Part shown: positions 1 to 31,793 of the stretch, one piece after another
Layout of the letters: every line of letters starts with the position of its first letter
Numbering within the stretch: position 1 is the first letter of the stretch
From: an uncultured Pirellulales bacterium
Lineage (GTDB): Bacteria; Planctomycetota; Phycisphaerae; Sedimentisphaerales; Anaerobacaceae
Direction: 5' to 3'
Assembly: GCA_964634165.1 (NCBI GenBank)
Contig: CAZWKM010000002.1
Coordinates: forward strand, 1 to 33,581
DNA length: 33,581 nt
The notes under the pieces: generated by a model
What the model saw: only the letters and a program-made list of their open reading frames with translations
Databases searched by the model: none
What the model was told of the DNA's origin: nothing
Translations under genes and position numbers: made by a program

Positions 1-3000
1 CTTTAGGGTCGGGGTCGGTAATTTTCTCAAGAACTTGGCCGAGAATCTGTATCCGGGGATTAAGGAATCCAGCAGCGGCGATGATTGCAGCCATAACGGG
101 ATTTGAGCCTCTTTGCGCGAAATAACCAGTTGCTTTATCATATGCCAATTCTCTCCGCGATTCGCTTTCGCTCTTTTTCTCTGCATATTCATAAGCACCT
201 TCGCGGGGCAGTTCTTCTGTAAGAGCAGAAGCATACCTGCTTCCAAGTATCCAATTTTTAATATCCAAAGGCTTGAGACCCAGTGCCACAAGCTGGCCTG
301 GTATTTCTTCAATTTTCTCTAATGTTGATAACTTTGTCCAGTTTTTGGGGGCTATATCTTGGGCCAACATATTACCGAATGATTGAACAACTGTACGATG
401 GCTGTCCTTCATCAACTCATCAAGCCTTTTGCTCATCAATTCCGTTGCCACTTTGCTTGCTTTTGATTTTCCGGTAATTCTATTAAGCACGCCTAGCGCC
501 AGATTGTAGGCGGGTATGTATGCCTGAGGCCCGCCTTCTGCCAACAATTGCCCTGTCGTGATGTCGCGGGGTATGTTTCTAACACCAAACGCCGGCTTTT
601 GCGTTTTTGTCCGTTTCCACGGGCGAGTCATTCCCATCAGCACCCTGGTGATATGCTTCGTTACATCGCCGGGTATTCTCTGCCGGGCGTACATCCTGAA
701 AATGTACGGGTCGGGAACTTGGAAAAAGTGGCGGTTCCCATCCTCTCCCCAGAGCGAAAGAACCCGGACGGCATTTGGTTTCTTCATCCGCCATATATCG
801 GTGTGGTTTTGACAAACTGCCACATCGTCCGGCTGAGTCGGCTCGTCGAGTTCCTCGACCTTCAACCCCGCTTGGTCGGCTTGCTGCTTGTTAAGGTAGT
901 CAGCTATGACAACTTGCATTTCGTGTTCTGTTAGCTTGGCAACCTTTTTTGGCTCTAAACGCAAGGGTATCATTAGACGATTCAGCAACATTCGGGCATC
1001 GAGGGGCATATCCTTTCGCTTATTTGCTTCCTCGGCCATCCTCACCATAGACCACGCAAACCTGTGCCAGTAGTAACTATCAAATGCTCGGCGGGTACGG
1101 AAGCGAACCGAATCATCCAGCGTTTTTAAGGGCAATGCTGAACCAAAAGCGGAGTATATTCCGCTGCTTTTTGCGCTTGTGATTCCACCCGCACCACCCG
1201 GCTTTCCTTCGATTTGACGCTGTAAGGGCCAATAATCTTCCCACGCCTTGATGATAGTGACGAACTCCCCTGGTGTTTTCTCGCCTGCCAACAAGGGCAC
1301 TAATAGCAGATGATTCATAAACTGATTGACTTCTTTGAAGTAGCCGTCCCATTCCGGGTGCGAGGACTCCTGCTCACGAATAAACTTCTCCAAATCAGCA
1401 GGCGTAAGACCTTCCGTCCGACCTGCGTACTCGTGTCCTTTCTTCTTGGCTCTTTCGAGAGAAGCCCTTGCCTGGCCGTAGGTGCAAAAATCTTCCCAGT
1501 CCTTCAATCCTACTTCGTGCTTGATGGTGTTCAGCGATTTGGGATACAATCGCATACTGTTTCCGTGTCCCGGATTCAGGTTCTCCGGCAGAGTAACCAC
1601 TTCTCGCAGCAAACTTAACTCTTGCTTTGAAAACCGCTCGAAGCCCTTGCCCGTTGCTTTGACAACAATACCATCACCTTCGCCCTTGGCCCCGTTTATC
1701 GCCGCATCAAACGCCTGTGGCACTCTAAGCAAGTCATTTCTTGCTGCGTCCGTGTCCGCCGGCGTATCCTCGATGTGCTTTTTCCAGTCCCTTGCCAATT
1801 TTAATTGTGAGCGATAGTCTTTGTTTATCCAGCTTTTAGCTACCCCATACACACCGAAAACATCCAAAAAACCGAGTCGGTTCTGAGCGGCAATCGCATT
1901 AAAAGTCCGCCGATGAACCCTGTGTACTATCATTGAGTCGCCAATCGCGTTTTGCAAAAGCCCCCAAGCCATATTCGAGACTTGCTCTGGCGTATTTATG
2001 CCCTTTGGCTTGTCGTGTACCTGAGTTTGCAACTGTTCCATCACCGGCCTTGACTTCTGGAACACATAAGCCCTGTGAGCATCTCGCAGACCGGCAAGCA
2101 GTTCCGGCCTTAATTCTTTGAGTACGCTCTCAAATTGCGCCTTTAAGGCGTCTGGTATCTTGCCGGGGTCGGTGATATACAATCTGACTAACTCCGCCAT
2201 ACCCTCTTCCGGTGTTTGCGCTGAGGCCATTGTGTCTGGGCCAGTGAGTTCGATGAGCATTTTGCTGATATGCGCAAACCACGCTGGGTTTTCGTCTCCA
2301 ATTAAAGCCGACAGAGCGTGCCCCGCCTCGTGAAAATTTAATTGCCACGTGCCGGATTTCGTTCGTATGGTATGCGGGCCTGGCTCAAAGTGGGCGGGGC
2401 TGCGCCTCGTCGTCTGCGTTTTGCCGACAAGCATCAGAGCTTTCACCTGCTCATTGACAAAATCGACTATCGAACGCAGACCAACTTTCTTTTTGCCCTT
2501 CTGTTTCGTATCGCGTCTGAGCTTGTCCAGCAAGCTCTTGCCTTTTTTCGTCTCCGGTGGTTCAGAAGAATAGGAAGCAGCGATTTCCTCGCTCTCCTCC
2601 GTTATCCTTGGCCGTGCTCCTTTGTGAATATTCAGAGCAGAAGTATCCGCCGAAGTTATGTCCCTGACAACCTTGTGGTCTCTCAAGAGCCGGCCAACAA
2701 CCGATTCAGCCGCTCGCCCTATCGCAAACCATCTCCGTTTGTACCGAATAACCTCATCGAGAAAACCATAGGATTGCAAAGCCGAAGCATAGTCCCGGGT
2801 CCCGGAAGGCAGAAGTTCGATTACCTTGTCTCCGCTTATCGCAGATTCTGTGAGTTGCCAGCCGTTGTCAAGTTCAAGAACTGCTCCGTCTTTCACCAGG
2901 GCGATTGTCTCACTTGCCGTTAACTCAACCAGTTTGTTGCCTATACCTAATCGCTGTCTAATCTGCGCCACTTCTGTTGTTTTCAGACCCAACCCGACAA

Positions 3001-6000
3001 TGCCACGTCCGTCCTTCAGAGTCGCTCGTTGAATTCGCTTATTACGCAGGCCGGAACGGCCCATAATCTTGTCGTAGATTGAGAAAATAGGCCCAGACAA
3101 AATGACAAATCGCTTTGGTCGGAAAGCGGGTGTTTTGGCGTAGGTGGTGTCCCACCACACCTTGGCCTCTCCACCCAAAACCTTCTCATATTTCTCGTGC
3201 AGTTCGTTCGTGCTTACTGCGTGCGTCTCAGCTCTGACGTTACGCAAGTGAAGAGCATTAGAAGAAGTCGCCAGTGGATTTTCGTTTTTCTGGACAGCGT
3301 AGATATGGCCACTTTTCTTATTCTTATAGAAACCTCTGGACGCAAAGCGAGTTGCTTGGTCAAAATTGATTTTGTGAACTGCTACATCGCCTTCAAGTTC
3401 ATACAGCTTTGTTTGGGCGCCTGATGCTTCGTCTGTATGGACAACGGTTGGTTCACCGACCACCTTGAGATTAGTAGCGTGAATTTGCTCTACGCCGAAA
3501 TCAAACGCTCCCGTCTCCTTCGCTCGCGCTATTATCTCCTGGTAATTGCCGTAGAATATCTCGAAGATTCCGTTCTGTATATCGACCGGCAAAGCCATAA
3601 TACGATTAAGGAAACGGTCAACGTTCTCTGTATTTTGTCGAGCCAAATCGCCTTCTTCGTTAAGCAATCCCATTTGCTCGATTACAGCACGGCCCACTCC
3701 TTGATTCGCGTATTCCCCCATCATTATACCGTTATAGGTTGCCGTCAAAGCGGCCACGCCATACGAGTCCGTTAAGTCCTCGACGTTAAACATACTGCCG
3801 CCAAGAGCACTCCGCTCGCCTTTAGTAATCGCGCCCAGGGCAGCCAGCCGCCTCGACACAGCATTCGTAAGCCGCATTTGCCCCGCTAGGTTGAGTGTCA
3901 CCGGCCTGATGATAGGAGCTGTCGCCTGAAACGACCTATGAACCCTGCCAAAAGATTGCATCTGCGTATCCGCTGACCACGATAACTGAAAGGCATAGAA
4001 AACCCTACGCTGCTGATTTTTTTTGGTCAAGTCGGCGTGCAAGCTGATGCCTGTCGAGCCAGCCCCCGAAATGATAGCTATCCGTTTCTTGCCCTGTTGG
4101 AATAATTCGGTCTCGTGTTCATTGAGTTGTGTTTGCTTAACTCCCTTGATTTTCCTGCGAACATATTTACCGTTCTCCATCCTGCGAGTACGGCCCGTGA
4201 TTTCAGCCACCCTGCCGGCCCCGAAATGTTCTATCAAAGCGTCAAGTGGGTTGGTAGGCAAACTCATATCTGCTATTTGCGCCAACAGTTCTTCTTGTTT
4301 GCGGAGATTTTGCCTATTTATAACCGGATTGCCCGCACCGTCAAGAATCCGTTCTCTGCGAGTTCTGCCAGTCTGTGGGTCAGTTACTTCCTCATACTGT
4401 TCAAGCGGAAAGTGTCTTTTCACCAAATCAACAAGCATTTGCCTTGGCGAAAACTCCATCTCATCAAGCGATACACCCTCCTCCAAAGCATCATTTACTA
4501 ATCGTTTCGTCACGGTTTCGTTGGTATTGTAAAGGTTGACAACGGCCGACCGGCCTTCCGACAAATCCTTTTCGATGGCCTTGACAACCGATGGTAGCTC
4601 GTACCCCATCATCAATTGCAAAAAGAACCGCTGCTGCGCAGAGTAGAAACTACTAAAATGTCCCAACGCCCTCCGACTGGCGTTTCTGTTGGCTTCCTCA
4701 AAAGCTTTGTTCAGTTCACCCCAAAAGTTCGCAATTTCATCAAATTGCTTTGTCTCGTTACCAGAGAGTCCGTATTCCAACGGTGCGTATTCCACGCCTT
4801 CGTAGCTGATAGTTCTGGCAACTACCTTGCCGAGCAGTTTGAGTTCACGCGATAACATTTCCATATTAGCCACGCCACCCTGCTGCATAGCATTGGCAAA
4901 AGCTATAAAGTTTGGAAACGCGGCCCTTTCCCCCCAAAGTCCTAACCGTTCAAGGGGGATAAGATGTCGTACTTCAGATGCACCTGTCGCGGACACATAA
5001 AGTATTCGGGCTTTCGGGAATAACCTTTGCAGTTCAATCCCCATATTACCTTGTTGCGTACCTTGCCCCGCAGTGTATCCGCCCCCTTGTGTTGTAGCGG
5101 CCGCGTTCTTCATCTTGTGGGTCTCATCAAAAGCTATCACGCCATCAAAGTCGGGGCCAAGCCAGTCGCATAATTGCTTAAATCGCTCCTTGCCTTTCGT
5201 GTAGCCCTTTGCCAGCATACCATAGGTGGTAAAGAAAACTCCCTCGTCTGCTGTTATGTTGGCGTTCTTATGAAACGGTTTCTGGTGAATCAGCTTTAAG
5301 GGTACACCGACGCCATCTTTATCTCGTTGAGCGTCCGCAACAAGCTGGTGACTGGCTGATATATGAACTGCTTTTTTCCGGCCTTGCTTCAAATTGTCAA
5401 GTATGACAGCGTAAATCTCGCGGCCTTTACCCAAACCAGTACCATCCCCTATCCAAAATCCCGCCCTTTTGCCGTCCGGCAGTATTGTCTGATGGGTTTG
5501 GCCAGCATATACGACAGCTTCTAATTGAACGTCCGACACCCTGCCTTCCGTGACGATTTCCTTTGGTAAATGATGTTTGTATGTAATATCGGGTGGCGTC
5601 ACAGACGACATTACCGTGGATTCGACAATATCGGCGGGATGCAGCTGCGAACCTTTCACGGTTGCCTTCTGAACTTGATATGTGCTATAAGGCGTCCCCT
5701 CCTCCACTTCGGAGGGCGTGGTTTCTTTTACGCTTTCTTCCGATTGCGTTTCTTCAATAACGGCGTCACTGTCCAGTCCCCAATCCGAATGTTTCTGCCG
5801 AATATTTTGATATATCTTTGCCAGATAAGGCCGAAACTTCTCGTCCATCCCCTCCATTATTCGTGCAGACCAGTCCGCGAAAGACCTTATCCCCGCTTCT
5901 GCGTACATCGCTCCGAGCTTAACGCCATCAAGCAGTAGGGCAGGGTCTATACCAGAGTACAATCCTTTTTTGCCGGTGAGGGTGTCGTTGATTTTCTTTT

Positions 6001-9000
6001 TGAGGCGATTTATTTCGGCTTGCTTTTCAGGAGAGAGGTGCTCGGTGAGCTTTTTCTTTACTCGTCTATTACCAAGCTCGCTAACTCCGCCGCCCACAGG
6101 GGGAGTTCCTTCTGACTCAACGGCAGGGATATTTCTTCTCTGTCCACTATCCGGTCCACCAGTTGGTCGAGGTTCCCCCGGCTCTTCCACAGGTCGTACC
6201 ACTCTTGGTCCGTGATTGGCACTTGTGTCGGCGGTTCCAGGTTCCCGTGTGGGTGAAGTACCACCTCCACCAGTTGCACCAACGGATTCCCCTGTCTTTG
6301 CGGCTCCCCCAACTCGGCCAGCAACTTCGCCGCCCTCGTCTTGGCTCGCTGTGCGTATCCGCTCATTTACATTCTCCTTAGATAAAGGCCCTAAAACTTT
6401 CAGAGCTTCCTGCGGCGACAGGTCTGCTCCTGTAACAATTTGGCCTTCACTTTTGGTCGCACCATCATTATCTATTATAACGATTTGGTTGCCAAAAGTT
6501 GTGCCAAATTTACCATAATCCTTGCCGGACATACCGATATTGGCCCGAACATTGTATTTTTCTTCGATTTTTCCCCACCAATCACGGAAATTGGCCCTGT
6601 CAAGGGCCATTCCTTGTCCAACAATAGCCACTAATCGCCCACCTTTTTTCAGGCGAAACAGCGCTTGCTCAACGTGCCTTGCACCGAATTTCGTTTTATG
6701 GGCTTTCACTCTCCCGCCAGTCGCCGAGAATGGAGGATTCATCACGATAACATCATACTCCTTGCCGGGTTCGAGTAGGTTATCGAGTTGCTCGGCATTA
6801 ACATTGTACGCCTTGAAGCCCAGCGACTCTAAAAGACTACGCCTTCGAGCATCAATCTCGTTTGTTTCCACCCAGGCGCCCGCTAATCGCATCAGGGTAG
6901 CGATGTTGCCTGTCCCCGCACTTGGCTCGAGTGCCGACATCCCCGGCTTGATAGCGGCTGCCCTGACAGCCACATACGCTTCTGCCGGCGGCGTACTGAA
7001 TTGCTGTAATTCGACTTGCATCTCATCCCGGCGATTCTGCCGTGGCATCCTGTCAGTGATAGCCAATAATTGTGCAAGAGCACTTTCCGGCCTTTTGAGG
7101 TCTATCCCTGACTCAGTGATATGTTTGTTCATCCCGGCTTCGACAGCATCGTAGGTATCACGAGCGTTGCCGGCCGCCGCTCCGTAAACTTCTCTGGCAA
7201 GAGCATTGACAACAGCATTGGTTATTTTGGTTTCAGGATTGTCCCGCAGCAACGCCGCTACCTTATTGACTACCTGCTCATACTGCTCGCTTTTGGCTTT
7301 GACGCCCTTGTTTTCCCCCTCTGCGGCGGGCTTGGCCTTCAAGCCCTTGCTTTTCGGAAAAGCGATTTCTTCTGTGCCGAACGCCATCTCGACAGCTTTC
7401 TTGACCGCATCCTCATAATCCCATTGCTCTATCCCAACCGGGCCTCGCTGACGGCGCAAGCCGCCTTTCTCGATTTGGACGTAGAAGCCATTCCCGTCGT
7501 TTTTGGCTACAACTGTGTATCGTTCCCCTTCCGATGTCGTGGCTTGCCCTGTGTTGTCCAGAGTAGTCTCGAAATTTTGCCTCGAAATCTTTACACCCTT
7601 GCTTTTCGGCGCCGCCGTTGCCTTTCTTCTGGCCAATTCCTCGACCGCCATCCTGTATGTCTCGGCCATCTCCGGCTCATCTGCCGTAACATCGGCGAGT
7701 ATCTGCAAGTGCTCGGTCTCAGCATCTCTTATCTTCGCGGCAATCTCCTCTGGCCGCTCTGCTACCGCCTCGGCAAGAGAAGTCGCGCCAGCGGGCGTCT
7801 CTGGGCCTGGAATCGGCTCTGTGGCGGGCGGTTGGCCTATCTCTCTCGCTTCGGCTTCCAGCCTTGCTTTCTCATCGTCCCGTAAACGTACTTGTCCAGG
7901 CGCTTGCCCTTCAATCCCTTCCGCCGCCCCTCCCGCAGCAATTTCCTGTGCAGCTCTTTCGGCATTTTCTTTCTCCTTCAACCGTTGCTCTTCATAGGTC
8001 AAAAGTCCAAGAGGGTGAACATTCATCTCTCGGCGCCTTCGCTCCAATTCCTGTTTGGCGACAACATCACCCTGCTCGGCCTTTTCTCTCAATTCAGCAA
8101 AATCGGCCTTCTCGGCTGTCCTTTGCTGAAACATATATTCCTCTTGGACCCGCTCAATCACCCTCTCGGTTTGCATCAACTGTTCTTGATTGTTCAACGC
8201 ATCCTTGAGCAATCCGGCGAACTTGCTGCGTTCCTCTGCAGACCAGCCGGCGATACCCAGTTCCTTGAGGTCTTTACGGCTCGGTTCCTTTTTCTCCGCT
8301 ATCCGGGCAGAAACACCTGGCGAGAGAGCCGCTACTTGCATAGCCCCTTCCGGCGTCAGGGCGACATCCTTAAACTTCCCCTTGTCCTGAATGTCTAAGC
8401 GTCCGGGATATGCCTTGCCCTGCATTTTCGCGGCTGCTCGGTTTGCAAGGCTAACCGTCGCACCACCGCCAAAACCTACAAGCGACATTGCTCCGGCAAC
8501 AACAAACTCTTGCGCCCGCTGGTCGATGAATCCTATAACACCATCCGGCCCGATTATGGGCTTGTCGTAAACCAACTTCGCAGTTACCGCTTGCCACGAA
8601 CCTTGCGTAATCTCCTCTGCTCCCTCGCCAACGAAGCCGAGCAGGACGTCTTTCGTCAAAGCAGCAGCACCTCGCTTTGCGACATACTCTCCCGCTTCTT
8701 TTGTGACTTTACGGCGTAGCGCCCGCCAACCAATCTTGCCGAGCTTCAGAGCTAACGCTGTCTGTGCAAACTCAAGAATTGCAGCTACTGACCCATAAAT
8801 GACTTTGGCTTGCTGGGCTTGCTCCTCGGTCGCCCCATCCTGAATTGCCTGCCGGTATGCCTCCTGCCCCTCGGCCTCGAACATAATCGCCATTGCTATC
8901 TGTGGCTGGCCTCCCGCTATAGCTACGCCACTGGCTATCATTACAGGCATTGACGGAGCAATCGCACTTGACAATTTGGTCGGGCTGGTAATTAAATCCC

Positions 9001-9337
9001 AGAAATTCTTAGGCTGTTCGTTTTGCCATTCCGGGTGACGTGCAATCAGGTCGTCAACTTTTTCTCCGAATTCCTCTCCGGGCAGCGTCCAGTTCATCCC
9101 CGCTGTTACATTTATCTCTTTCCTCATAGACTCAGGCGGCCCGACATACTCGAATAGGCCGGAAACGGCTTTTGCTAAGTTCAATCCCCCAATCCGCCAC
9201 GCATCTATGTTGGATTTCCAAAACCCCTTCTTCGCCTTCTCTTTTGGAGTGTATGGCTCTATTTGTTGGACAAGGTCAAGCAGCGATACTCTCTGAGGCG
9301 GCTCGACTTGCTCTGCTATGTCGGCAAGAAGGCCCAT
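1..9337 (-). CDS. Giant polyvalent virion-module protein, partial (more than 3,112 codons; 3' end beyond the window). Contains a methyltransferase, an Sbno-type helicase, an HExxH module and a long unassigned C-terminal region.
   Basis: Absent from the supplied ORF track because it has no stop in the window. The minus frame with codon first bases at coordinates = 1 mod 3 opens at ATG 9337-9335. An in-frame TAA lies just upstream at 9355-9353. The ATG overlaps the TAA of the upstream gene as TAATG. I hand-translated about 35 of the 156 sequence lines spread over 1-9337; all read as ordinary protein with no stop. The track lists no ORF in this frame and nothing above 102 aa on the minus strand in 1-9336, which requires this frame to stay open throughout. 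N-terminus: MGLLADIAEQVEPPQRVSLLDLVQQIEPYTPK. Last in-window residues: ...FLNPRIQILGQVLEKITDPDPK. Confidence 0.85.
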   Translation of the reverse strand, partial: MGLLADIAEQVEPPQRVSLLDLVQQIEPYTPKEKAKKGFWKSNIDAWRIGGLNLAKAVSGLFEYVGPPESMRKEINVTAGMNWTLPGEEFGEKVDDLIARHPEWQNEQPKNFWDLITSPTKLSSAIAPSMPVMIASGVAIAGGQPQIAMAIMFEAEGQEAYRQAIQDGATEEQAQQAKVIYGSVAAILEFAQTALALKLGKIGWRALRRKVTKEAGEYVAKRGAAALTKDVLLGFVGEGAEEITQGSWQAVTAKLVYDKPIIGPDGVIGFIDQRAQEFVVAGAMSLVGFGGGATVSLANRAAAKMQGKAYPGRLDIQDKGKFKDVALTPEGAMQVAALSPGVSARIAEKKEPSRKDLKELGIAGWSAEERSKFAGLLKDALNNQEQLMQTERVIERVQEEYMFQQRTAEKADFAELREKAEQGDVVAKQELERRRREMNVHPLGLLTYEEQRLKEKENAERAAQEIAAGGAAEGIEGQAPGQVRLRDDEKARLEAEAREIGQPPATEPIPGPETPAGATSLAEAVAERPEEIAAKIRDAETEHLQILADVTADEPEMAETYRMAVEELARRKATAAPKSKGVKISRQNFETTLDNTGQATTSEGERYTVVAKNDGNGFYVQIEKGGLRRQRGPVGIEQWDYEDAVKKAVEMAFGTEEIAFPKSKGLKAKPAAEGENKGVKAKSEQYEQVVNKVAALLRDNPETKITNAVVNALAREVYGAAAGNARDTYDAVEAGMNKHITESGIDLKRPESALAQLLAITDRMPRQNRRDEMQVELQQFSTPPAEAYVAVRAAAIKPGMSALEPSAGTGNIATLMRLAGAWVETNEIDARRRSLLESLGFKAYNVNAEQLDNLLEPGKEYDVIVMNPPFSATGGRVKAHKTKFGARHVEQALFRLKKGGRLVAIVGQGMALDRANFRDWWGKIEEKYNVRANIGMSGKDYGKFGTTFGNQIVIIDNDGATKSEGQIVTGADLSPQEALKVLGPLSKENVNERIRTASQDEGGEVAGRVGGAAKTGESVGATGGGGTSPTREPGTADTSANHGPRVVRPVEEPGEPRPTGGPDSGQRRNIPAVESEGTPPVGGGVSELGNRRVKKKLTEHLSPEKQAEINRLKKKINDTLTGKKGLYSGIDPALLLDGVKLGAMYAEAGIRSFADWSARIMEGMDEKFRPYLAKIYQNIRQKHSDWGLDSDAVIEETQSEESVKETTPSEVEEGTPYSTYQVQKATVKGSQLHPADIVESTVMSSVTPPDITYKHHLPKEIVTEGRVSDVQLEAVVYAGQTHQTILPDGKRAGFWIGDGTGLGKGREIYAVILDNLKQGRKKAVHISASHQLVADAQRDKDGVGVPLKLIHQKPFHKNANITADEGVFFTTYGMLAKGYTKGKERFKQLCDWLGPDFDGVIAFDETHKMKNAAATTQGGGYTAGQGTQQGNMGIELQRLFPKARILYVSATGASEVRHLIPLERLGLWGERAAFPNFIAFANAMQQGGVANMEMLSRELKLLGKVVARTISYEGVEYAPLEYGLSGNETKQFDEIANFWGELNKAFEEANRNASRRALGHFSSFYSAQQRFFLQLMMGYELPSVVKAIEKDLSEGRSAVVNLYNTNETVTKRLVNDALEEGVSLDEMEFSPRQMLVDLVKRHFPLEQYEEVTDPQTGRTRRERILDGAGNPVINRQNLRKQEELLAQIADMSLPTNPLDALIEHFGAGRVAEITGRTRRMENGKYVRRKIKGVKQTQLNEHETELFQQGKKRIAIISGAGSTGISLHADLTKKNQQRRVFYAFQLSWSADTQMQSFGRVHRSFQATAPIIRPVTLNLAGQMRLTNAVSRRLAALGAITKGERSALGGSMFNVEDLTDSYGVAALTATYNGIMMGEYANQGVGRAVIEQMGLLNEEGDLARQNTENVDRFLNRIMALPVDIQNGIFEIFYGNYQEIIARAKETGAFDFGVEQIHATNLKVVGEPTVVHTDEASGAQTKLYELEGDVAVHKINFDQATRFASRGFYKNKKSGHIYAVQKNENPLATSSNALHLRNVRAETHAVSTNELHEKYEKVLGGEAKVWWDTTYAKTPAFRPKRFVILSGPIFSIYDKIMGRSGLRNKRIQRATLKDGRGIVGLGLKTTEVAQIRQRLGIGNKLVELTASETIALVKDGAVLELDNGWQLTESAISGDKVIELLPSGTRDYASALQSYGFLDEVIRYKRRWFAIGRAAESVVGRLLRDHKVVRDITSADTSALNIHKGARPRITEESEEIAASYSSEPPETKKGKSLLDKLRRDTKQKGKKKVGLRSIVDFVNEQVKALMLVGKTQTTRRSPAHFEPGPHTIRTKSGTWQLNFHEAGHALSALIGDENPAWFAHISKMLIELTGPDTMASAQTPEEGMAELVRLYITDPGKIPDALKAQFESVLKELRPELLAGLRDAHRAYVFQKSRPVMEQLQTQVHDKPKGINTPEQVSNMAWGLLQNAIGDSMIVHRVHRRTFNAIAAQNRLGFLDVFGVYGVAKSWINKDYRSQLKLARDWKKHIEDTPADTDAARNDLLRVPQAFDAAINGAKGEGDGIVVKATGKGFERFSKQELSLLREVVTLPENLNPGHGNSMRLYPKSLNTIKHEVGLKDWEDFCTYGQARASLERAKKKGHEYAGRTEGLTPADLEKFIREQESSHPEWDGYFKEVNQFMNHLLLVPLLAGEKTPGEFVTIIKAWEDYWPLQRQIEGKPGGAGGITSAKSSGIYSAFGSALPLKTLDDSVRFRTRRAFDSYYWHRFAWSMVRMAEEANKRKDMPLDARMLLNRLMIPLRLEPKKVAKLTEHEMQVVIADYLNKQQADQAGLKVEELDEPTQPDDVAVCQNHTDIWRMKKPNAVRVLSLWGEDGNRHFFQVPDPYIFRMYARQRIPGDVTKHITRVLMGMTRPWKRTKTQKPAFGVRNIPRDITTGQLLAEGGPQAYIPAYNLALGVLNRITGKSKASKVATELMSKRLDELMKDSHRTVVQSFGNMLAQDIAPKNWTKLSTLEKIEEIPGQLVALGLKPLDIKNWILGSRYASALTEELPREGAYEYAEKKSESESRRELAYDKATGYFAQRGSNPVMAAIIAAAGFLNPRIQILGQVLEKITDPDPK
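2318..2332 (-). other. HEAGH (HExxH) zincin-like metallopeptidase motif within the giant ORF
   Basis: Hand translation gives TWQLNFHEAGHALSALIGDENPAW (first His is residue ~2336). An EEGMAELVRLY segment about 45 aa downstream could supply a third ligand Glu. This is a motif only; no fold-level evidence is available to me. Confidence 0.45.
3847..5590 (-). other. Strawberry-notch (Sbno)-type superfamily-2 helicase module within the giant ORF
   Basis: Hand translation gives FWIGDGTGLGKGREI (5417-5449), IAFDETHKMKN (DETH = 5117-5128), IAIISGAGSTGISLHAD (4031-4081) and LSWSADTQMQSFGRVHRSFQ (QSFGRVHRS = 3932-3958). From memory these match the diagnostic Sbno motifs GDGxGxGKGR, DEcHkaKN, StGiSLhAD and WSAd..Q.fGRtHRsnQ. 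Borders are approximate. Confidence 0.8.
6058..6366 (-). CDS. Candidate nested (overprinted) 102-aa ORF in an alternative frame of the giant gene
   Basis: This ORF is in the supplied track. Its ATG at 6366-6364 is preceded by AAGGAG (6379-6374) with a 7-nt spacer. Its translation (…ITDQEWYDLWKSRGNLDQLVDRIVDREEISLPLSQKELPLWAAELASLVIDE) is compositionally protein-like, unlike the other four off-frame minus ORFs inside the giant gene. It overlaps exactly the low-complexity Gly/Pro/Thr linker between the methyltransferase and helicase modules. Confidence 0.3.
   Translation of the reverse strand: MSGYAQRAKTRAAKLLAELGEPQRQGNPLVQLVEVVLHPHGNLEPPTQVPITDQEWYDLWKSRGNLDQLVDRIVDREEISLPLSQKELPLWAAELASLVIDE
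6458..7030 (-). other. N6-adenine-type (amino) DNA methyltransferase domain within the giant ORF
   Basis: Hand translation gives motif I LEPSAGTGNIATLM (EPSAGTGN = 6905-6928, residue ~804). Motif IV is DVIVMNPPFSA (NPPF = 6728-6739, residue ~867). This is followed by HVEQALFRLKKGGRLVAIVGQG. The order motif I then motif IV with ~55-aa spacing is typical of gamma-class amino-methyltransferases. Domain borders are approximate. Confidence 0.8.
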
Positions 9338-10410
9338 TAAATGACCCCCAATTTATGCAAGGCGTTGGCGATTACCTGTTCGTTTCCACTGTCAACGATG
9401 TATTGCCATTCCGCCGCCGTCTGCGCGCCGTATTCCTTGCGTACCCAATTGGCGTCGAAGTCTCCTGCCTTAACCTGCTCGATAATATGTTTGGCACGTT
9501 CGTCCAGTTTTTTCAAATCCACCTCGGCCACAACCTCTCGCTTTGCCGGCTTGACGGTTTTGTCGGTTTCAAGTTTGCTCAGGTGGCCTCCGCCTTCACC
9601 GCCGCCCCTCCCTTGGCCTCCGCCTTCACCGCCGGCCCTCATCCTCGCATATCTACCCATTATATTTGCAACCTGAGCTTCAACGGCCGCGTAGTCCGTT
9701 ATGTCAATGCCTTCCATAGTTTGCTTGAACATTGCTTTTAATGTATCAGTGTAGAGCTTGCCATACTCTGGAAAGCTAATCTCCCCCGGCAGTTCTTTGA
9801 CATTGCCCTTATCATCCATAATTCCCCTTATACCGGTTACGGGGTCGGTTACTATTCGGCTATTATATATCTCTTGCGGCTTCGGTTCATCGTGATAGAC
9901 CTGCGAGGGGGTAATAGAATGGAACTGCTGCTGTAACTGTCTTTCCGCTTCCTCTCCCTGCTCTGGCGTCCAATCCCCCTTCGACACCTGCTCTCGTACC
10001 CAAGCAATTGCGTCTTGAAGTTTACCCATCTTGTCTTTTTGTTGCTGAGTGTATTCCCACTTAAAATTGTCCCGTAAGATTTTCTGCTGCTGCAAGGCCG
10101 CTTCAAGGGCACGTCCGGGGGCCTCCTCATACTCTCGCATCCGAAACGCACGGTCGGCTTCCCTTCCTTCCTGCAAGCCTTTTGCTTCCTCGGTCCTCTG
10201 GTCAACGGCGCGGTTGTAGTAGCTCAGTCTCCCCTGCGCAAGTTCTTTCCGGTCAATCCTTTCCCATTCCCGCATACGCAATTGAGCGTTAAGCGCAGCC
10301 ATTCGTATGGCTCTGTCGATGTCTCGCTCGCGTCTCTGGCCTCGACCCGCCGTGTATGCAACGCCGCCCATTGCTTCTGCAGACGGCGCGTGTTTGACTG
10401 TAATAGGCAT
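9337..10410 (-). CDS. Coiled-coil-rich virion protein (internal/ejection-protein candidate), 357 aa
   Basis: Track ORF. TAATG overlaps with both neighbours. The sequence is rich in charged heptad-like segments (…RMREWERIDRKELAQGRL…) and has a GGEGGGQGRGGGEGGG linker. Its position between the tail fiber and the giant protein parallels the podovirus internal-protein block. Function is inferred from position only. Confidence 0.5.
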   Translation of the reverse strand: MPITVKHAPSAEAMGGVAYTAGRGQRRERDIDRAIRMAALNAQLRMREWERIDRKELAQGRLSYYNRAVDQRTEEAKGLQEGREADRAFRMREYEEAPGRALEAALQQQKILRDNFKWEYTQQQKDKMGKLQDAIAWVREQVSKGDWTPEQGEEAERQLQQQFHSITPSQVYHDEPKPQEIYNSRIVTDPVTGIRGIMDDKGNVKELPGEISFPEYGKLYTDTLKAMFKQTMEGIDITDYAAVEAQVANIMGRYARMRAGGEGGGQGRGGGEGGGHLSKLETDKTVKPAKREVVAEVDLKKLDERAKHIIEQVKAGDFDANWVRKEYGAQTAAEWQYIVDSGNEQVIANALHKLGVI

Positions 10411-11036
10411 TATGCGTTCCCTAATTGATTCATCAGTTGGACGTACAAGCTCTCGCTCGGATAATCATCGGTACGCCTCTCCATAAAGTCGAGCATCTCC
10501 CTGCTCATACCCGTGCTGTAACCAAGCTGTTCCCGGCGAAGTTGCTCATTCAATAAAGCCATCGACCGGGCCTGCGCCTCTGCGTTTTGGGATTGAACCG
10601 CAGGGGCGATTGTGGTCGAATACAGACCCCTGTTGACCATTGCCTGATTCGCCGCCGCCCCCGACCTCGCGTAACCTCTCTCAACATCGGCTCTGGCGGC
10701 TCCGCCAAGACCCTCTAACTGGCCCATCGCATTGCTGTATCGAGTTTCATAGCGGCCAAGAATATCCTCATAACGCTCCTCGTTTGCGGCCTTTGCCTCG
10801 TCATAGGCGGTCTGATATTCAGTCGTGAGGGTATTTTTCTTGGCTTCCATGATAGCTTGCTGGACTTGTGATAACTTCTGCTGGCTTACTGCTTGTTGAT
10901 AATTGTAGAAGCGGCGGGTAGCCTGATTATCACGCCCTACGTCCCATCCACTGAGAGTTGGCGCACCTCCGTATGAACGGTTCAGTGCATCAATGTAGTC
11001 TTGGACACTGCTGTATTTTGAGTAATCTTGCGCCAT
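10410..11036 (-). CDS. Virion protein (internal-protein candidate), 208 aa
   Basis: Track ORF. AAGGAG lies 7 nt upstream of ATG 11036. Its stop overlaps the next start as TAATG at 10410. The sequence is Gln/Ala-rich and looks helical. I recognise no motif. Confidence 0.5.
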   Translation of the reverse strand: MAQDYSKYSSVQDYIDALNRSYGGAPTLSGWDVGRDNQATRRFYNYQQAVSQQKLSQVQQAIMEAKKNTLTTEYQTAYDEAKAANEERYEDILGRYETRYSNAMGQLEGLGGAARADVERGYARSGAAANQAMVNRGLYSTTIAPAVQSQNAEAQARSMALLNEQLRREQLGYSTGMSREMLDFMERRTDDYPSESLYVQLMNQLGNA

Positions 11037-11047: not shown

Positions 11048-12679
11048 TTACGATTTTATGATGCTAAGACATTTCGCTCGGCCCCACCATCCTTGAACAG
11101 AAGCATATACATTCCCTGCTCCCGTGGTTCTTTTTAGGGCTATGCCGACCTTATAGGTTTGAGCTACGGGTATGCCTTCGTCTTTCAAATTGATTCCGTG
11201 CTCTGTAAAAGTATCAGGGTTGCCGGAAAGCGCTGTAGAAGAGACGGGAGTGGATTCCCACACTTTTGTCCCACCTTGGTTCTTTACATACAACACAACA
11301 GAAAGTTCATTCCCGCCGCCATCTACCCACACTGCCGCATCAAAGTCCACTTCTATTGCGGGACCATCTAACGTAAACGAAGCACTATCATAATCAACGT
11401 AACTTGTGCTGGTCGTGATATGATAAAGGTCGCATTTTTCCCTGTATGCAATGACATCATCAGAATCGAGACCCACGGATTCTCCCGTGTCGTAAGAATC
11501 AAAGGACAAGTGAACTTCGTTGCCGGATATGTCGATTATTTTCCGCCACCCAGAGTTATAGCTTGTCCCGGAACCGGATTCCGTATCAGACCACGCCGGC
11601 AAAGCTGAACCCCTCCACCTGCCGTAAAGACCTGTTCCATCGAGTTTAATCTGGTATCTGGCAAGGGCTTCTGTCGTGGGTGAACCATCAAGGCCAGAGA
11701 GCTTGAGTTGCCCGGCAGTAATGTTACCCAAGTCAGCGTTTATGGCCGCAAGTGTAGAAGTCTTGATAACGCCAGCCAATACAACCTTGTGCGTAGCTGC
11801 CGGTATTGCCGCTCCTGAATTATTTACACAGACAACCCAGTTCCCGGCGGCTATGGCGGTTGCAAGGTCGTCTGTGGTCTTGAAGGTCGTTGTCGAATCA
11901 TCATCGTCCCAGTAGATATAAGTGTCGGTACTGCCGTCATCGACCGCCTTAGCGACAATGTTATACGGTGTGCCTCCGAAATCCAGCGTCCCGGCAGTCC
12001 AGCCGACTTTGCCTGAGCCGGTATTGCCGATAAACGTAATGCCTGTCAAAAAGGGCACATCATCCGAAAGACCGCCGCCGTCAACGCCGTCCTGAACGTC
12101 CACAAGCGTAATAGTATCCAAAGGAGTCCCCTCCGTGCCGTCTTTGAGGGTAATGACCTTGCTGCCGTCAATATCGCCCGAATCCAGAACACCCGTATAG
12201 CCATCGCTGCCCGTTGCGTATCCGTTTGCTTCCGTCACTTCATTATTGTTTGGGTCATAGAGTTTAATCGTGCCGGAACTGAGCAGGGTATCGCTGCCAC
12301 CTGCTATCTTGTGCGCCTCTATCGTAAGCGTGCCTGTACTGTTATGGATAGCCGTCCCATCGGTGGGCTTGATGTAATAGACGACCGCATCGTCGCCGTT
12401 CTCGCCGGGCAGCCCGCGAATCGCTATCGGATTACTCCACGTCCCCTGCGTGTCTAACAAAGCTGTTTTGGTGCTCATCCAGTTATCGCCGGTAGCGAAG
12501 GTTCTATGCCAACCGCCCGTTGTTCCGTCACCTGTGGGATTAGACGGTGTAGAGTCGAGGTCGGATGCGTGGTATGTTATAAAGACGTTCAGACCGTCAT
12601 CGCCATCGGCCCCATCTACCGCCGCTTGGAGCTTTTGCATCCACTGCCGTATCCTGATTAGGTCGTTTTCTGTTGACAT
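11048..12679 (-). CDS. Tail fiber / receptor-binding protein candidate, 543 aa
   Basis: Track ORF. The N-terminal helix is followed by Gly/Asp/Thr-rich beta-type sequence (…GLPGENGDDAVVYYIKPTDGTAIHNSTGTLTIEAHKIAGG…), typical of fibers. It follows the large tail protein, and its start overlaps that gene's TAA at 12679. Confidence 0.55.
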   Translation of the reverse strand: MSTENDLIRIRQWMQKLQAAVDGADGDDGLNVFITYHASDLDSTPSNPTGDGTTGGWHRTFATGDNWMSTKTALLDTQGTWSNPIAIRGLPGENGDDAVVYYIKPTDGTAIHNSTGTLTIEAHKIAGGSDTLLSSGTIKLYDPNNNEVTEANGYATGSDGYTGVLDSGDIDGSKVITLKDGTEGTPLDTITLVDVQDGVDGGGLSDDVPFLTGITFIGNTGSGKVGWTAGTLDFGGTPYNIVAKAVDDGSTDTYIYWDDDDSTTTFKTTDDLATAIAAGNWVVCVNNSGAAIPAATHKVVLAGVIKTSTLAAINADLGNITAGQLKLSGLDGSPTTEALARYQIKLDGTGLYGRWRGSALPAWSDTESGSGTSYNSGWRKIIDISGNEVHLSFDSYDTGESVGLDSDDVIAYREKCDLYHITTSTSYVDYDSASFTLDGPAIEVDFDAAVWVDGGGNELSVVLYVKNQGGTKVWESTPVSSTALSGNPDTFTEHGINLKDEGIPVAQTYKVGIALKRTTGAGNVYASVQGWWGRAKCLSIIKS

Positions 12680-15072
12680 TATTTTGCTCTACCCGCAGGC
12701 AAGATGTTCACAAGCACCCGTTCCAGTCCCCACGTCTCATCTGCTGTGTTATTACCGAGCCGTATTCCAAGAAATATCCCCTTCGCTCTGCGCCTTAGCC
12801 GATTGTGTTTGCCCGGCCCCGTTATCGTGCCGTCAAACAAAGCTCTGGTATTTATTGCAACAGGGTTTCCCTTGTAGTTTGAGTCTACACCCGGCTGGTA
12901 TTTTCCAATACATAAAGCCGTTGTACTCAGCCAACCATCGAGATAGCTTCCCTTCGATGGGCCAAGGTTGTATGTTCCAGCCGTACTCGACCACGAAATA
13001 TAATAATCGTGTGTCGAATTGTGCCAACATCGGTGTCCATCATACTCATCAGTCTCGATGTAAACGCCCGTTGCATCCGGGTCTGAGTCGCCGAGCACTA
13101 TTATTCTGTCGCCCAGTTCTCCCCAATCCACCATTTCCATTATCTCCTCAGCGGTTTCGGCCACGAAGATTTCATAGTCAATATCGTCCGAATCAGGAAT
13201 AGAACCGCCGGCCCCTCCGCCCGCCGAAACAACAGACAAAGAGTTTGTCTTGCCGTTATAGTCGTGGTCTTTCCCTATCATCACCGGGCCTAACAGGACG
13301 AAGCTATCTATTGCCTCGCTCGTCGGCGAAGCAATCGTGCCGGTGTCATCGCTTTTAGCCGAATTGTCCATCACCCTGATATGGCCATCGTAACACCCCA
13401 ACAATAACTGTCTGTTGACGGGGTCATCGGCGTTGTAGAAGTGAGAACACATCACGCCGTCTTCTTCTGGGTAACTCTCCGGGAAGAACCCTTGGGACTG
13501 CAAATCATACCAGTAGTTAGCGTTTGTCCCTGTCTCGATGTCCGTAACACATATCTGTATCCCGTATTTGTTCGGGTCAAAGGCCAGCGTAATACGCTGC
13601 GTTTCAGGATTCAAGTTAAGGTCTGAGATGAAGTTCGGGATGACATCACTCGTTAGCGGCTCTGGTTGCGAGAGTCCTCCTTGTATTCTGTAAAGGCCCT
13701 TCAAGTCGAGAACATAGAGGTTGCTCTTGTCGTCCCACGTCCAGGCGTCCGGCGAGATTATGCCCACCTTCTCATTGAACATATCCAAACTACCTTCTGA
13801 CGCCGCATCCCCTCTAAGCAAATATATCGAGCCAATCGAGCCGTATATCAGGAAGTCATCGCTGTAGGGTATCTGAGCAGTAATAATATCCCCGACCTTG
13901 CCTGCATCTGCGTCCGTACCTGCAACTGGTGATTGGGCGTCGTCGGCGGCGTATTTCCAGTCATAGGGGTTTGCTTGTCTCGAATGATACCACTGGTGCG
14001 GGTCCGCAGAATTGCCGGTTACCGCCCCCCTCCCTCGGTAATTGCAACCCATTGTCAATCTTGCAGGCATTTCGCCGAATTCATCCTCGCCTGTAACGTC
14101 TTCATATACTCCCCAGTCGTAGTGATGGGGCGTTGTCGGCTCGACTACGTCTGTCGGATAAAGCGTTGTGGGCCTCAAGGTATCCCCGGAAAGAGTGTCT
14201 TGCCTGAGAGCGGAACCTGTCTGCGATGAAGTATATGTTGCTGTTACATTGAATTTGTCACCATCCACCGAGTTGATTTCGTATGTATCATTGTAATCGG
14301 TAGTTCCCGAAATTATTACTGTATCGCCTGTAGAGAATATATGCCCAGCCGCCGTAACATCGATAGTACCCTCTCCACCATCCGCTATGGCTGTAATAGT
14401 GGCAAGCGGGGTGGTGAATGTGCCCGAAATAACCCTGCCGTAGATTACCGTGTCAATACCCTTGGCAACGTAATCCACAATCATCTGCGCGCCGGAATTA
14501 AGTTGCGAGATAGTGTATCCCCGTCTCGGCGGGGCGGTCATACTGCCGGAAAGCGTGAGCTTCGTGTTGACAAAATCGACCACCTTCTTAATCGCATCGT
14601 TGACGATATAGACCTTCTGCTGCAATTCAAACATCTGCAATGGAGAGCTGGTGTCCAAGGTCAGGCCGGAAAGCTCCACAAGTTTCGGCGGAGAGTCGTC
14701 ATTCTCATACCAGAAGGCATCGTCCGCTGCCGCACAAAGTCTCTTTCTGTAGTTTTTCGCATCAGGCAAGGCGTCATTTTCTGATATGACCGTGAAAGAC
14801 CACAAGGCGCTGTCAACATCATCCTCTCCTTCCTTGACTGCGGTAATCAGCCAGAAATACTCCGCTCCGTAGGCAAGCGATATGCGGGGGTCGTATGCCT
14901 TCTCATACACAATGCCGCGATAGACGTTGGTGTTCTTGTCGGTAACTTCGGTTTCGTTCGTACCGAAATAGACCTTGTAGTAATCGCTTTCGATACTGTC
15001 CGCCCACGACAACGTTGCGCTGTTGGCGACATTGGTAGCGTCATCGGCAGGACTCGGCGTTGACAAACTCAT
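12679..15072 (-). CDS. Large tail (nozzle/tubular-B-like) protein with N-terminal Ig/FN3-like domain, ~797 aa
   Basis: Track ORF 12679..15102. I prefer ATG 15072 (MSLSTPSP…) because GGAGG lies 8 nt upstream and the ATG overlaps the upstream stop as TAATG. The N-terminus (ATLSWADSIESDYYKVYFGTNETEV) looks FN3/Ig-like. The size and beta-rich sequence resemble ~800-aa podovirus nozzle proteins. The assignment is analogy only. Confidence 0.5.
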   Translation of the reverse strand: MSLSTPSPADDATNVANSATLSWADSIESDYYKVYFGTNETEVTDKNTNVYRGIVYEKAYDPRISLAYGAEYFWLITAVKEGEDDVDSALWSFTVISENDALPDAKNYRKRLCAAADDAFWYENDDSPPKLVELSGLTLDTSSPLQMFELQQKVYIVNDAIKKVVDFVNTKLTLSGSMTAPPRRGYTISQLNSGAQMIVDYVAKGIDTVIYGRVISGTFTTPLATITAIADGGEGTIDVTAAGHIFSTGDTVIISGTTDYNDTYEINSVDGDKFNVTATYTSSQTGSALRQDTLSGDTLRPTTLYPTDVVEPTTPHHYDWGVYEDVTGEDEFGEMPARLTMGCNYRGRGAVTGNSADPHQWYHSRQANPYDWKYAADDAQSPVAGTDADAGKVGDIITAQIPYSDDFLIYGSIGSIYLLRGDAASEGSLDMFNEKVGIISPDAWTWDDKSNLYVLDLKGLYRIQGGLSQPEPLTSDVIPNFISDLNLNPETQRITLAFDPNKYGIQICVTDIETGTNANYWYDLQSQGFFPESYPEEDGVMCSHFYNADDPVNRQLLLGCYDGHIRVMDNSAKSDDTGTIASPTSEAIDSFVLLGPVMIGKDHDYNGKTNSLSVVSAGGGAGGSIPDSDDIDYEIFVAETAEEIMEMVDWGELGDRIIVLGDSDPDATGVYIETDEYDGHRCWHNSTHDYYISWSSTAGTYNLGPSKGSYLDGWLSTTALCIGKYQPGVDSNYKGNPVAINTRALFDGTITGPGKHNRLRRRAKGIFLGIRLGNNTADETWGLERVLVNILPAGRAK

Positions 15073-15299
15073 TAAGACACCTCCACTGTCGTCACGGAAC
15101 AAATAGCCACAACAGGCCCATTACCGCCGCCTATCTGCTGATTATATGCCTTGGCAAAGCCCGGGCGCTGTCCTCCTCTGGCCCTGTATTCAAGTACATC
15201 TCTCGGGCGCACATTGTTCATACGCGGAGACGTAAATCGCGGCTGGGTGGTAGCCGCAAAGTTCGTATTTTTGCCCACCATTGGGAACTGGAGTTTCAT
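15072..15299 (-). CDS. Small virion-module protein, 75 aa
   Basis: Track ORF. AAGGAG lies 6 nt upstream of ATG 15299, directly after the upstream TAA. Its stop overlaps the next ATG. Confidence 0.5.
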   Translation of the reverse strand: MKLQFPMVGKNTNFAATTQPRFTSPRMNNVRPRDVLEYRARGGQRPGFAKAYNQQIGGGNGPVVAICSVTTVEVS

Positions 15300-19397: not shown

Positions 19398-19452
19398 AAT
19401 ACACCTCTCTGTAAAGGTTTTGCTGAAAAAAGCTCCACAGCAGAGCTTTTAT

Positions 19453-19677
19453 TTATGCAGCAGCTACAGTGACTAAGTTGAAGTCACAAGAAGTCAATGT
19501 CCCCTCGTTGACATACAACGCGTCACCGTCGCCGCCGTCCGTATGCTGAAACAGACAGCCAATTGCATACCCGGACTCCTCATCGGAGGGCACGGTCGGC
19601 CCCCACGCTCTGAGTATGCCGACACCGGGTACATATTCCGTCCTGTCTCGGCCAAACTTTACATCTCCACTTCCCAT
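19453..19677 (-). CDS. Small capsid-module protein, 74 aa
   Basis: Track ORF. AAAGGGAAA lies upstream of ATG 19677. It sits directly after the stem-loop that follows the 386-aa gene. Confidence 0.45.
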   Translation of the reverse strand: MGSGDVKFGRDRTEYVPGVGILRAWGPTVPSDEESGYAIGCLFQHTDGGDGDALYVNEGTLTSCDFNLVTVAAA

Positions 19678-19697
19678 TATATTTCCCTTTCGCTATT

Positions 19698-19732
19698 GTT
19701 GCGGAAGCCCGGCGAACCGGGACTTCCGCAAC
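19698..19732 (-). promoter_or_regulatory. Stable 15-bp RNA stem-loop with UUCG tetraloop (minus-strand transcript), downstream of the capsid genes
   Basis: The plus-strand sequence is GTTGCGGAAGCCCGG-CGAA-CCGGGACTTCCGCAAC, with one bulged A. On the minus transcript the loop is UUCG. There is no U-tract 3' of the stem on the minus strand, so it looks more like an attenuator or RNA-stability element than a canonical intrinsic terminator. Confidence 0.5.
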
Positions 19733-19753
19733 AAAACCCAAGCCGATTTCAAT

Positions 19754-20905: not shown

Positions 20906-20948
20906 GATTTTCACTCCATTTCTTTTAGGTATTTTCCTAAAACTTCAG

Positions 20949-31715: not shown

Positions 31716-31793
31716 GCAACGCAGAAAAAGAACGGGCAACCGACCTCTTACTCAAATTCATTTTTGGTGAGCTTGTAGAAAGTGAGGAGCACA

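Follow-up and report, generated by a model that had tools for sequence, protein, structure and literature searches.

Why should a small temperate phage give about a quarter of its sequence to one enzyme-laden gene at the very end of its structural operon? The question is raised by a 33,581-nucleotide (nt) stretch of contig CAZWKM010000002.1 (the window hereafter), in which a phage late operon, read on the minus strand, ends in an open reading frame (ORF) so long that it runs off the window edge. Here we report that its product, P0001, is modular, with an N-terminal and a C-terminal frame and, between them, methylase, helicase and HExxH domains, and that its termini are homologous to those of giant proteins occupying the ejection-protein slot of podophages. 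We favour, with moderate confidence, the reading that the gene encodes a virion-borne “polyvalent” ejection protein with an injected anti-restriction cargo.

A terminal frame around an enzymatic cassette

No stop interrupts the minus-strand frame between the ATG at 9337 and position 1 of the window, a run of 3,112 codons. A preliminary description of positions 1-11036 had reported this ORF together with NPPF, DETH and HExxH motifs; all are present, and the motifs are kept in homologues (NPPF at residue 867, GLGKG at 1301, DETH at 1404, HEAGH at 2336). The window edge cuts off the final 377 amino acids (aa), including a Pfam LPD38 match, and the complete product of 3,489 aa (P0001) is identical on public contigs. 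One of these, the 43.5-kb Joint Genome Institute (JGI) contig L001, is 99.995% identical to the window over the 19.3 kb that they share, and the giant gene makes up ~24% of it. Hydropathy places five hydrophobic helices in the frame of P0001, three in its N-terminal module (N-module) and two in its C-terminal module (C-module).

A BLAST map of the first 49 homologues resolves three separable parts: the N-module, the methylase-helicase cassette and the C-module. Many giant proteins contain the cassette (aa ~700-2230), at 35-43% identity; the N-module also occurs where no enzyme domain can be recognized, in proteins of 2,005 and 2,434 aa, and the C-module also in a 4,423-aa protein with a different N-terminus. 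Three divergent relatives of the locus (L004, L005 and L007) keep the gene order of 797-aa protein, variable fibre, 208-aa protein, 357-aa protein and giant. The giant itself ranges from 2,005 aa without methylase or helicase in L005, through 3,489-3,506 aa here and in L004, to 4,423 aa in L007. Homologues of the 357-aa protein lie directly upstream of the giant gene (439 aa in L004, 557 aa in L005), and those of the 208-aa protein measure 236 aa in L004 and 227 aa in L005 and are contained in a 717-aa protein in L007. Judged from these comparisons, relatives keep the frame and change the cargo.

The N-module belongs to a large and almost unannotated family. Word-indexed homologue searches returned two proteins each for the N-module and the HExxH region; it was an exhaustive profile search with the N-module that exposed the family, in at least 757 protein clusters and always at the N-terminus. 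Host proteins have a median length of 1,315 aa among the matches listed, 144 of them newly listed (P0053-P0196). Pfam, PHROG and NCBIfam scans of 36 N-module proteins yielded almost no annotation, and no Pfam or PHROG model covers the module. Among the unannotated N-termini of “large ejection proteins” in metagenomic podophages, it is probably the most frequent. Seven residues (P131, E156, G157, E189, E238, E242 and Q245) are invariant in the N-module alignment (A1), and an AlphaFold2 (AF2) model is all-helical at low confidence (predicted local distance difference test, pLDDT, 56). By hhalign the module matches the N-terminal regions of the giants of phiC725A, Klebsiella phage ZX1 and Bcep22 (gp75) at 94.6% (E 6.5e-8), to which it is probably homologous, and those of BA3 and Vibrio phage 1.183.O at 82% (E 1e-5). 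We propose that it serves as a virion-incorporation or ejection-conduit anchor.

At the other end, the C-module aligns with the C-termini of the BA3 and Vibrio 1.183.O giants over 621 columns (hhalign 96.5%, E 8.8e-10), a match that identifies them as homologues at the level of sequence profiles. It carries LPD38 at aa 3175-3308 (Pfam 2.2e-07, 31.6 bits against a cutoff of 27), the only LPD family reported in a Pfam scan at E<=5, in which the presence of an LPD36 model in the library was unchecked. The LPD38-bearing end also lies near the C-terminus of several N-module proteins (local jackhmmer). A PLxRFG domain was considered and rejected, no NCBIfam PLxRFG model having matched the giant protein. 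When GenBank phages were searched by tblastn, neither the N-module nor the C-module had a match.

Between the two modules stand the enzymes. The methylase domain matches Pfam MTS (4e-05), PHROG DNA-methyltransferase families (down to 1.6e-23) and two PADLOC models, mad2 (1.9e-13) and orphan methyltransferase (MTase). Its motif I, of the form xPxxGxG, lies upstream of NPPF, from which an EcoKI/TaqI-like (gamma-type) N6-adenine MTase is predicted. The helicase combines an AAA_34 N-lobe with a Helicase_C_4 C-lobe, the arrangement of the Strawberry-notch (Sno) type within superfamily 2 (SF2), and its Walker A (GDGTGLGKGRE), motif II (DETH) and motif VI (QSFGRVHR) are all intact. Since the catalytic motifs of both enzymes are invariant across 18 homologues of only 32-56% overall identity, methylase and helicase are, as read from their sequences, very probably active. 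Just ahead of the helicase lies a region that the protein has in common with Bcep22 gp75 (BLASTP, aa 1072-1215 against 1327-1454, E 7e-9). A known defence system was rejected as an identity for the protein because PADLOC matched the methylase domain alone, with no defence-system helicase or effector model.

A tblastn search of GenBank phages with the methylase-helicase query matched 166 records, none of which covers >15% of the query; hence none carries the Strawberry-notch part. The methylase domain itself does match giants that end structural modules, namely those of the F116 group (e.g. phiC725A), Klebsiella ZX1, BA3 and Vibrio 1.183.O. The closest cassette outside the immediate family (41% identity) lies in P0006, a 5,109-aa protein from an Acidobacteria metagenome-assembled genome, where it is accompanied by domains of sigma-70 region 2 and of the DNA polymerase III beta-clamp, an unusual mix of cargo.

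Downstream of the helicase, HEAGH is followed after ~37 residues by EEGxAE, both invariant in eight sequences. This is the motif pattern of zincins, in which the HExxH helix is followed by a helix bearing the third-ligand Glu, and the domain is a probable zincin-like metallopeptidase. The homologue search with the HExxH region led to a 48%-identical fragment from a Planctomycetota metagenome-assembled genome. Its AF2 model (pLDDT 73, predicted template-modelling score 0.72) has a beta-strand region of low confidence, and its best viral fold match is a protein labelled “large polyvalent protein associated domain” (E 0.064, probability 0.99, TMq 0.48).

Table 1. Features of the giant protein P0001 and of the genes preceding it, with their positions in the window
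Feature	Residues of P0001	Window position	Strand	Basis
Giant ORF (complete product 3,489 aa)	1-3112	1..9337	-	Stop-free translation; complete product from source contig
N-terminal module with three hydrophobic helices	~3-330	8348..9331	-	Hydropathy; predicted all-helical
Hydrophobic helices of the N-module	122-140, 179-197, 279-297	8918-8974, 8747-8803, 8447-8503	-	Hydropathy
Charged Glu/Lys/Ala-rich spacer	~380-560	7658..8200	-	Sequence; BLAST coverage gaps indicate poor conservation among relatives
N6-adenine-type DNA methyltransferase domain (predicted)	~780-960	6458..7000	-	Pfam, PHROG, PADLOC, motifs
Methylase motif I EPSAGTG; motif IV NPPF	804-810; 867-870	NPPF 6728-6739	-	Invariant in 18 homologues
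Gly/Pro/Thr-rich low-complexity linker	~970-1100	6038..6430	-	Sequence
Helical region ahead of the helicase	1105-1225	5663..6025	-	phrog_10089 4.7e-14; common to Bcep22 gp75-type “DarB-like” giants
Strawberry-notch-type SF2 ATPase/translocase (AAA_34; Helicase_C_4)	1233-1533; 1696-1950	3488..5641	-	Pfam 1.8e-102; 6e-73
HExxH domain (HEAGH)	2261-2480 (2336-2340)	1898..2557 (2318-2332)	-	Invariant columns, alignment A3
C-terminal module, window part (module extends to ~3310)	~2566-3112	1..1642	-	hhalign, jackhmmer, Pfam, hydropathy
First hydrophobic helix of the C-module	3081-3099	41-97	-	Hydropathy
Second hydrophobic helix of the C-module	3122-3140	off-window	-	Hydropathy
Basic tail	3340-3489	beyond window	-	Sequence
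357-aa helix-rich protein with Gly-rich run; candidate partner ejection/internal-core protein		9337..10410	-	TAATG overlap with giant gene; no family match
208-aa helix-rich protein; candidate small ejection/internal-core protein		10410..11036	-	TAATG overlap with 357-aa gene
543-aa fibre-like protein		11048..12679	-	phrog_25032 5.1e-11; partial homology to 605-aa protein in L004
797-aa beta-rich tail protein, nozzle candidate		12679..15072	-	Homologues in L004, L005, L007; weak P22 gp10 match

Position at the end of the late operon

A tightly packed late operon, starting with terminase and capsid genes, ends with the giant gene. From the 167-aa gene (19397) to the giant gene, successive genes are spaced by -1, -1, +1, -4, -1, +9, -1, -1, +11, -1 and -1 nt, and a consensus scan from 19.4 kb to position 1 found no excess of promoter- or terminator-like sites over shuffled sequence, which together fit a single, translationally coupled late transcript. 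TAATG overlaps stand at both junctions inside 1-11036 (208-aa/357-aa and 357-aa/giant); the earlier statement that all junctions are of this kind thus holds for these two and fails for the operon as a whole. Upstream, the capsid genes are separated by gaps of 25-76 nt with hairpins. A hairpin with a T-run directly follows the 74-aa ORF (window ~19400-19450, minus strand) and a GC-rich hairpin follows the 386-aa ORF (~19680-19750, minus strand); the two, which the consensus scan did not list, resemble attenuating terminators between the capsid genes, which are highly expressed, and the tail/ejection operon.

Past the giant gene, L001 encodes a 78-aa ORF, a tyrosine integrase and then RecT, a PD-(D/E)xK nuclease, an SMC-like ATPase and an SNF2 helicase, from which the element is read as a temperate phage whose late operon is closed by the giant gene. 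Elsewhere, a serine recombinase (Resolvase, 4.5e-28) directly follows an AAA+ ATPase gene (window 31782-33168, plus strand; L001 20760-21863), so that two site-specific recombinases lie on one element of ~43.5 kb.

The genes for helical proteins of 208 and 357 aa that had been described ahead of the giant do exist, and helix-forming residues make up a fraction of 0.52 of their products, against 0.27-0.36 in the beta-rich tail proteins. Neither has a hydrophobic segment, and hhalign found no homology between them and T7 gp14/15, P22 gp7/20 or BA3 0005/0006. In L002, an otherwise identical contig from a second sample, the 357-aa gene is split into ORFs of 118 and 216 aa (L002 8960-10001) by an indel within its Gly-rich run (window ~10058-10111, minus strand); the cause may be a genuine length polymorphism or a misassembly of the repetitive GGN tract.

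Further upstream, the 543-aa fibre-like protein has a conserved N-terminus and a remainder that varies among relatives, and the family of the 797-aa protein shows a weak hhalign match to that of P22 gp10 (23%, E 9e-4). The 75-aa protein encoded next to it (window 15072-15299, minus strand) is free-standing here, and its first ~57 residues recur in L005 as the N-terminus of a Laminin_G_3 protein (969-1871, 70% identity) and in L007 as the N-terminus of the 797-aa homologue (762-3413, 34%); by sequence it resembles a portable anchor, fused or separate, for the N-termini of tail or receptor-binding proteins. A siphovirus reading, in which the 152-, 108-, 75- and 797-aa ORFs would be tail tube, chaperones and tape measure, was rejected on two grounds: the 797-aa protein, with its FN3-like start, is beta-rich rather than helical, and no tail genes lie past the giant gene. 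Gene content suggests instead a short-tailed morphology.

Within the structural block, the large terminase is recognized clearly (PHROG 6.7e-16), the major capsid protein weakly (PHROG 8.9e-06) and one protein as a right-handed beta-helix (Pfam 4.7e-11); the rest has almost no family match in Pfam, PHROG or NCBIfam scans. PDB sequence searches with the 797-, 603- and 326-aa proteins gave nothing significant. The gene order of the preliminary description, from terminase through portal, scaffold, capsid and adaptor to nozzle, is therefore borne out for the large terminase and, weakly, for the capsid, and leaves out about nine ORFs between the capsid gene and the 797-aa protein. The candidates for portal, scaffold and adaptor matched no profile (Pfam, PHROG, PDB sequence, hhalign), the portal candidate had no tblastn match in GenBank phages, and the nozzle label has the 23% hhalign match alone; these four labels are guesses from size.

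Several other genes of the block drew attention. Directly after the major capsid gene lie genes for a 386-aa Gly/Thr/Ala-rich protein and a 74-aa protein (window 19453-20914, minus strand), both without family match; they are candidates for a second capsid or decoration pair. Between the portal candidate and the scaffold gene, where such a protein is unusual, lies the gene for a 121-aa zinc-ribbon protein (CxxC...C; Pfam Zn_ribbon_8 0.0021; window 23124-23489, minus strand). A candidate small-terminase ORF and the longest large-terminase ORF have 86 nt in common (window 27613-27698, minus strand), and the true large-terminase start is probably a downstream ATG.

A proposed mechanism and its rivals

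We suggest that the giant protein would be produced late, from the final cistron of the tail/ejection operon, and built into the particle with the 208- and 357-aa proteins by way of its N- and C-modules (hydrophobic helices, LPD38). On infection it would leave the capsid ahead of or with the DNA, its terminal modules joining an envelope-spanning conduit while the central cassette enters the cytoplasm. There the Strawberry-notch ATPase would track along the incoming double-stranded DNA and the fused NPPF methylase would modify adenines in cis, guarding the genome against type I/III-like restriction or BREX-like systems ahead of phage gene expression. The HExxH domain would most likely cut the polyprotein, freeing the cassette from the structural frame.

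A packaged and injected anti-restriction cargo, as the preliminary description had envisaged, is in our view the best explanation because relatives keep the frame and change the cargo and because the termini are homologous to those of podophage ejection-slot giants. Translational coupling, synteny, intact motifs and the detection of a Bcep22/JC1-type giant in virions point the same way; packaging itself is inferred.

Several observations weigh against this explanation. The phage is uncultivated and known here from its genes alone; no profile identifies its portal, adaptor or nozzle, and its short-tailed morphology is read from gene content. Neither terminal module has detectable homology to the structurally characterized T7 gp14/15/16 or P22 gp7/20/16 proteins. 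The N-module model is of low confidence, and neither AF2 model (N-module, HExxH) matched a solved structure. For the HExxH domain there was no Pfam peptidase match and no PDB sequence match by profile, and among PDB folds Foldseek gave nothing significant (best E 0.46; anthrax lethal factor E 2.2). Similarity to P1 DarB, the sole member of the theme with a demonstrated anti-restriction role, is marginal. Finally, the giant gene adjoins an integrase at the prophage end, also a typical site for non-structural accessory genes.

This last point is the starting place of an alternative that we regard as unlikely, in which the position of the gene is incidental and its product is a non-virion protein: a late- or lysogen-expressed cytoplasmic enzyme that methylates progeny or prophage DNA, or a factor for defence or superinfection exclusion. 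The defence-model hits of the methylase (mad2 and orphan MTase) would suit it, as would the capture of polyvalent proteins by hosts for defence (PMC5512222). Against it stands the one-base TAATG overlap with a conserved upstream gene, with no promoter or terminator signal above chance between the two. The N- and C-modules are, moreover, common to structural-operon giants of cultured lytic and temperate podophages, one such giant family having been found in virions (PMC9144972), the defence-system helicase and effector models have no match, and a non-enzymatic helical and hydrophobic frame of ~1,600 aa would be purposeless in a cytoplasmic enzyme.

Next, and also improbable in our estimate, is the idea that the protein is packaged and ejected but acts mainly as a genome-import motor, a conduit-anchored translocase pulling the genome in, with methylation secondary. 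Genome import by comparable means is seen with the N4 virion RNA polymerase and in T7 gp16-controlled entry. An SF2 ATPase of the double-stranded-DNA-translocase type with intact motifs, lying inside a frame with five hydrophobic helices, agrees with this idea, and N4 gp50, an enzyme embedded in an ejection-protein homologue, provides a precedent (PMC4819975, PMC11445570). Relatives with the same frame carry other enzymes or none, which makes the cassette an add-on whose role need not be anti-restriction. On the other hand, L005 has the same frame without any ATPase, so that import in this lineage needs no motor; the ATPase is always fused to the methylase among the recovered homologues; and the same cassette occurs in the conjugative-type proteins P0007 and P0010, where a type IV secretion system does the importing. 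A combined version, to which we give slightly less credence still, would have the anchored Strawberry-notch translocase work as an ATP-driven import motor that methylates the DNA as it is threaded, with the HExxH protease then freeing the motor; if true, short-tailed phages would have a protein-only, transcription-independent route of DNA internalization.

A purely structural giant, tape-measure-like or part of a conduit and carrying decayed enzyme relics, is very improbable: its large helical regions and hydrophobic segments do resemble those of tape-measure and ejection proteins, but every catalytic motif stays invariant at overall identities of 32-56%, the cassette is kept in protein contexts that differ widely, and the tail genes expected after a tape measure are absent past the giant gene.

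Relation to known giant ejection proteins

In some small phages, about a quarter of the genome is devoted to giant ejection proteins loaded with enzymes. To our knowledge, P1 DarB is the only one of them with a demonstrated function. The present locus shows how such a protein is constructed, from a delivery frame found in hundreds of unannotated clusters and an inserted cassette that conjugative elements also use. Practical uses lie in the annotation of a large unannotated family, in the engineering of phages for protein-cargo delivery and in the choice of culturable models (BA3, Vibrio 1.183.O, JC1) in which anti-restriction by injected enzymes can be tested.

The strategy of an injected multi-enzyme ejection protein is already published, of which this locus is a further example; as a discovery, it mostly re-derives published ideas, and the “new variation” announced in the preliminary description was anticipated on two sides. 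Hardies et al. 2016 (PMC4819975) reported on internal virion proteins of the T7-gp16 type with passenger domains bound for the cytoplasm, among them the virion RNA polymerase of N4 and the methylase of the F116-group giant, and listed the Bcep22-type giant and BA3 0002 among proteins of the IVP-D/gp16 type (IVP, internal virion protein; their Table 2). In Iyer et al. 2017 (PMC5512222), polyvalent proteins are defined as multi-enzyme proteins that phages and conjugative elements inject, with a methylase-SF2 helicase dyad that follows an LPD36 domain, has DarB as its archetype and occasionally comes in Strawberry-notch versions, with processing by zincin-like peptidases, and with LPD38 as a phage-only domain. 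P0001 has the marks of that class: unrelated activities in one polypeptide, a phage late-gene position and an LPD domain (LPD38). That putative ejection proteins can be very large was also noted for P22 (PMC8402733).

Among the closest counterparts are the giants of the temperate podophages Bcep22 (gp75) and JC1 (gp69), of the genus Lessievirus. At 4,515-4,602 aa they are ~1,100 aa longer than P0001, their gene likewise ends the virion-morphogenesis module and amounts to about a fifth to a quarter of the genome, and the 4,515-aa DarB-like gp69 was found in CsCl-purified JC1 virions by 51 unique peptides (PMC9144972). Bcep22 gp75 has the motif order of P0001 (NPPF, Walker A, DExH, HExxH), the pre-helicase region (phrog_10089) and a probably homologous N-terminal region; its helicase, by contrast, belongs to another SF2 family (GAGKT/DEFH) and not to the Strawberry-notch one, and its C-terminal part is marginally similar (E 0.009; hhalign of the groups 14.6%).

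Two P22-like marine podophages, BA3 of Thalassomonas (BA3_0002, 2,631 aa) and Vibrio 1.183.O (2,706 aa), have giants that end the ejection-protein block a few genes downstream of a P22 gp10 homologue. Their NPPF methylase is ~40% identical to that of P0001 and their C-terminal ~650 aa are homologous to it, but they are ~800 aa shorter, and no helicase or HExxH domain was found in them by similarity. In the F116 group (H66 gp60; phiC725A PF725A_0054, 3,787 aa, “putative internal virion polymerase”; Klebsiella ZX1 “PLxRFG protein”, 3,867 aa), the giant is the last gene of the structural module of a temperate podophage, with an overlapping start, and is regarded as a T7 IVP-D homologue with an intracellular passenger domain (PMC4819975). 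Its central NPPF methylase is 42% identical to that of P0001 and its N-module probably homologous; it differs in having no Strawberry-notch helicase and a C-terminus with a PLxRFG motif, and the ZX1 protein adds an N-terminal transglycosylase-like segment.

With the 797-aa protein taken as a candidate nozzle, gene order here follows the logic of T7 gp14-gp15-gp16, P22 gp7-gp20-gp16 and N4 gp50, in which small, medium and large helical proteins come after the nozzle and the large one can bear enzymatic passengers (PMC4819975). P0001 differs from these in having no lytic transglycosylase domain. Homology to the T7 block, to which the genes had been likened, was sought and not found: against T7 gp12/14/15/16 and P22 gp7/16/20 and portal, either terminal module scored <1% in hhalign, and hmmsearch with T7 gp14/15/16 and P22 gp7/20/16 gave none, the sequence comparison covering the T7 and P22 proteins and not N4 gp50. 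Homology does extend to giants that others assign to extended IVP-D/gp16 families (F116 group, BA3; PMC4819975).

In P1 DarB (2,255 aa), too, a single polypeptide unites a methylase with an SF2 helicase; the protein is carried in the phage head and shields DNA entering the cell, in cis, against type I restriction (PMC5512222, PMC9144972), and by analogy it would be the functional archetype for the mechanism proposed here. The parallel that had been drawn with it holds for domain class, the only likeness that the sequences suggest, and not for descent: in a pairwise BLASTP only the methylase motifs align (29% over 123 aa, E 0.001; helicase motif VI E 0.24), the helicase of P0001 is of the Strawberry-notch family and thus of a different one, and P1 is absent among the 166 phage records matched by tblastn. 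Orthology to DarB was accordingly rejected. P1 is, besides, a myovirus with darB outside any tail or ejection operon, and DarB has no counterpart of the N- or C-module.

Polyvalent proteins of conjugative elements, such as P0007 and P0010, present the converse case: their cassette is 35-43% identical to that of P0001 and collinear with aa ~700-2230, but it is joined to other delivery domains (ArdC-N, Toprim and RadC; primase and MPTase), with neither the N- nor the C-module. Set beside all of these systems, the locus is distinguished by a Strawberry-notch-type helicase not found in any GenBank phage, by a private HExxH domain family and by the clear view that it gives of a widespread, unannotated N-terminal delivery module.

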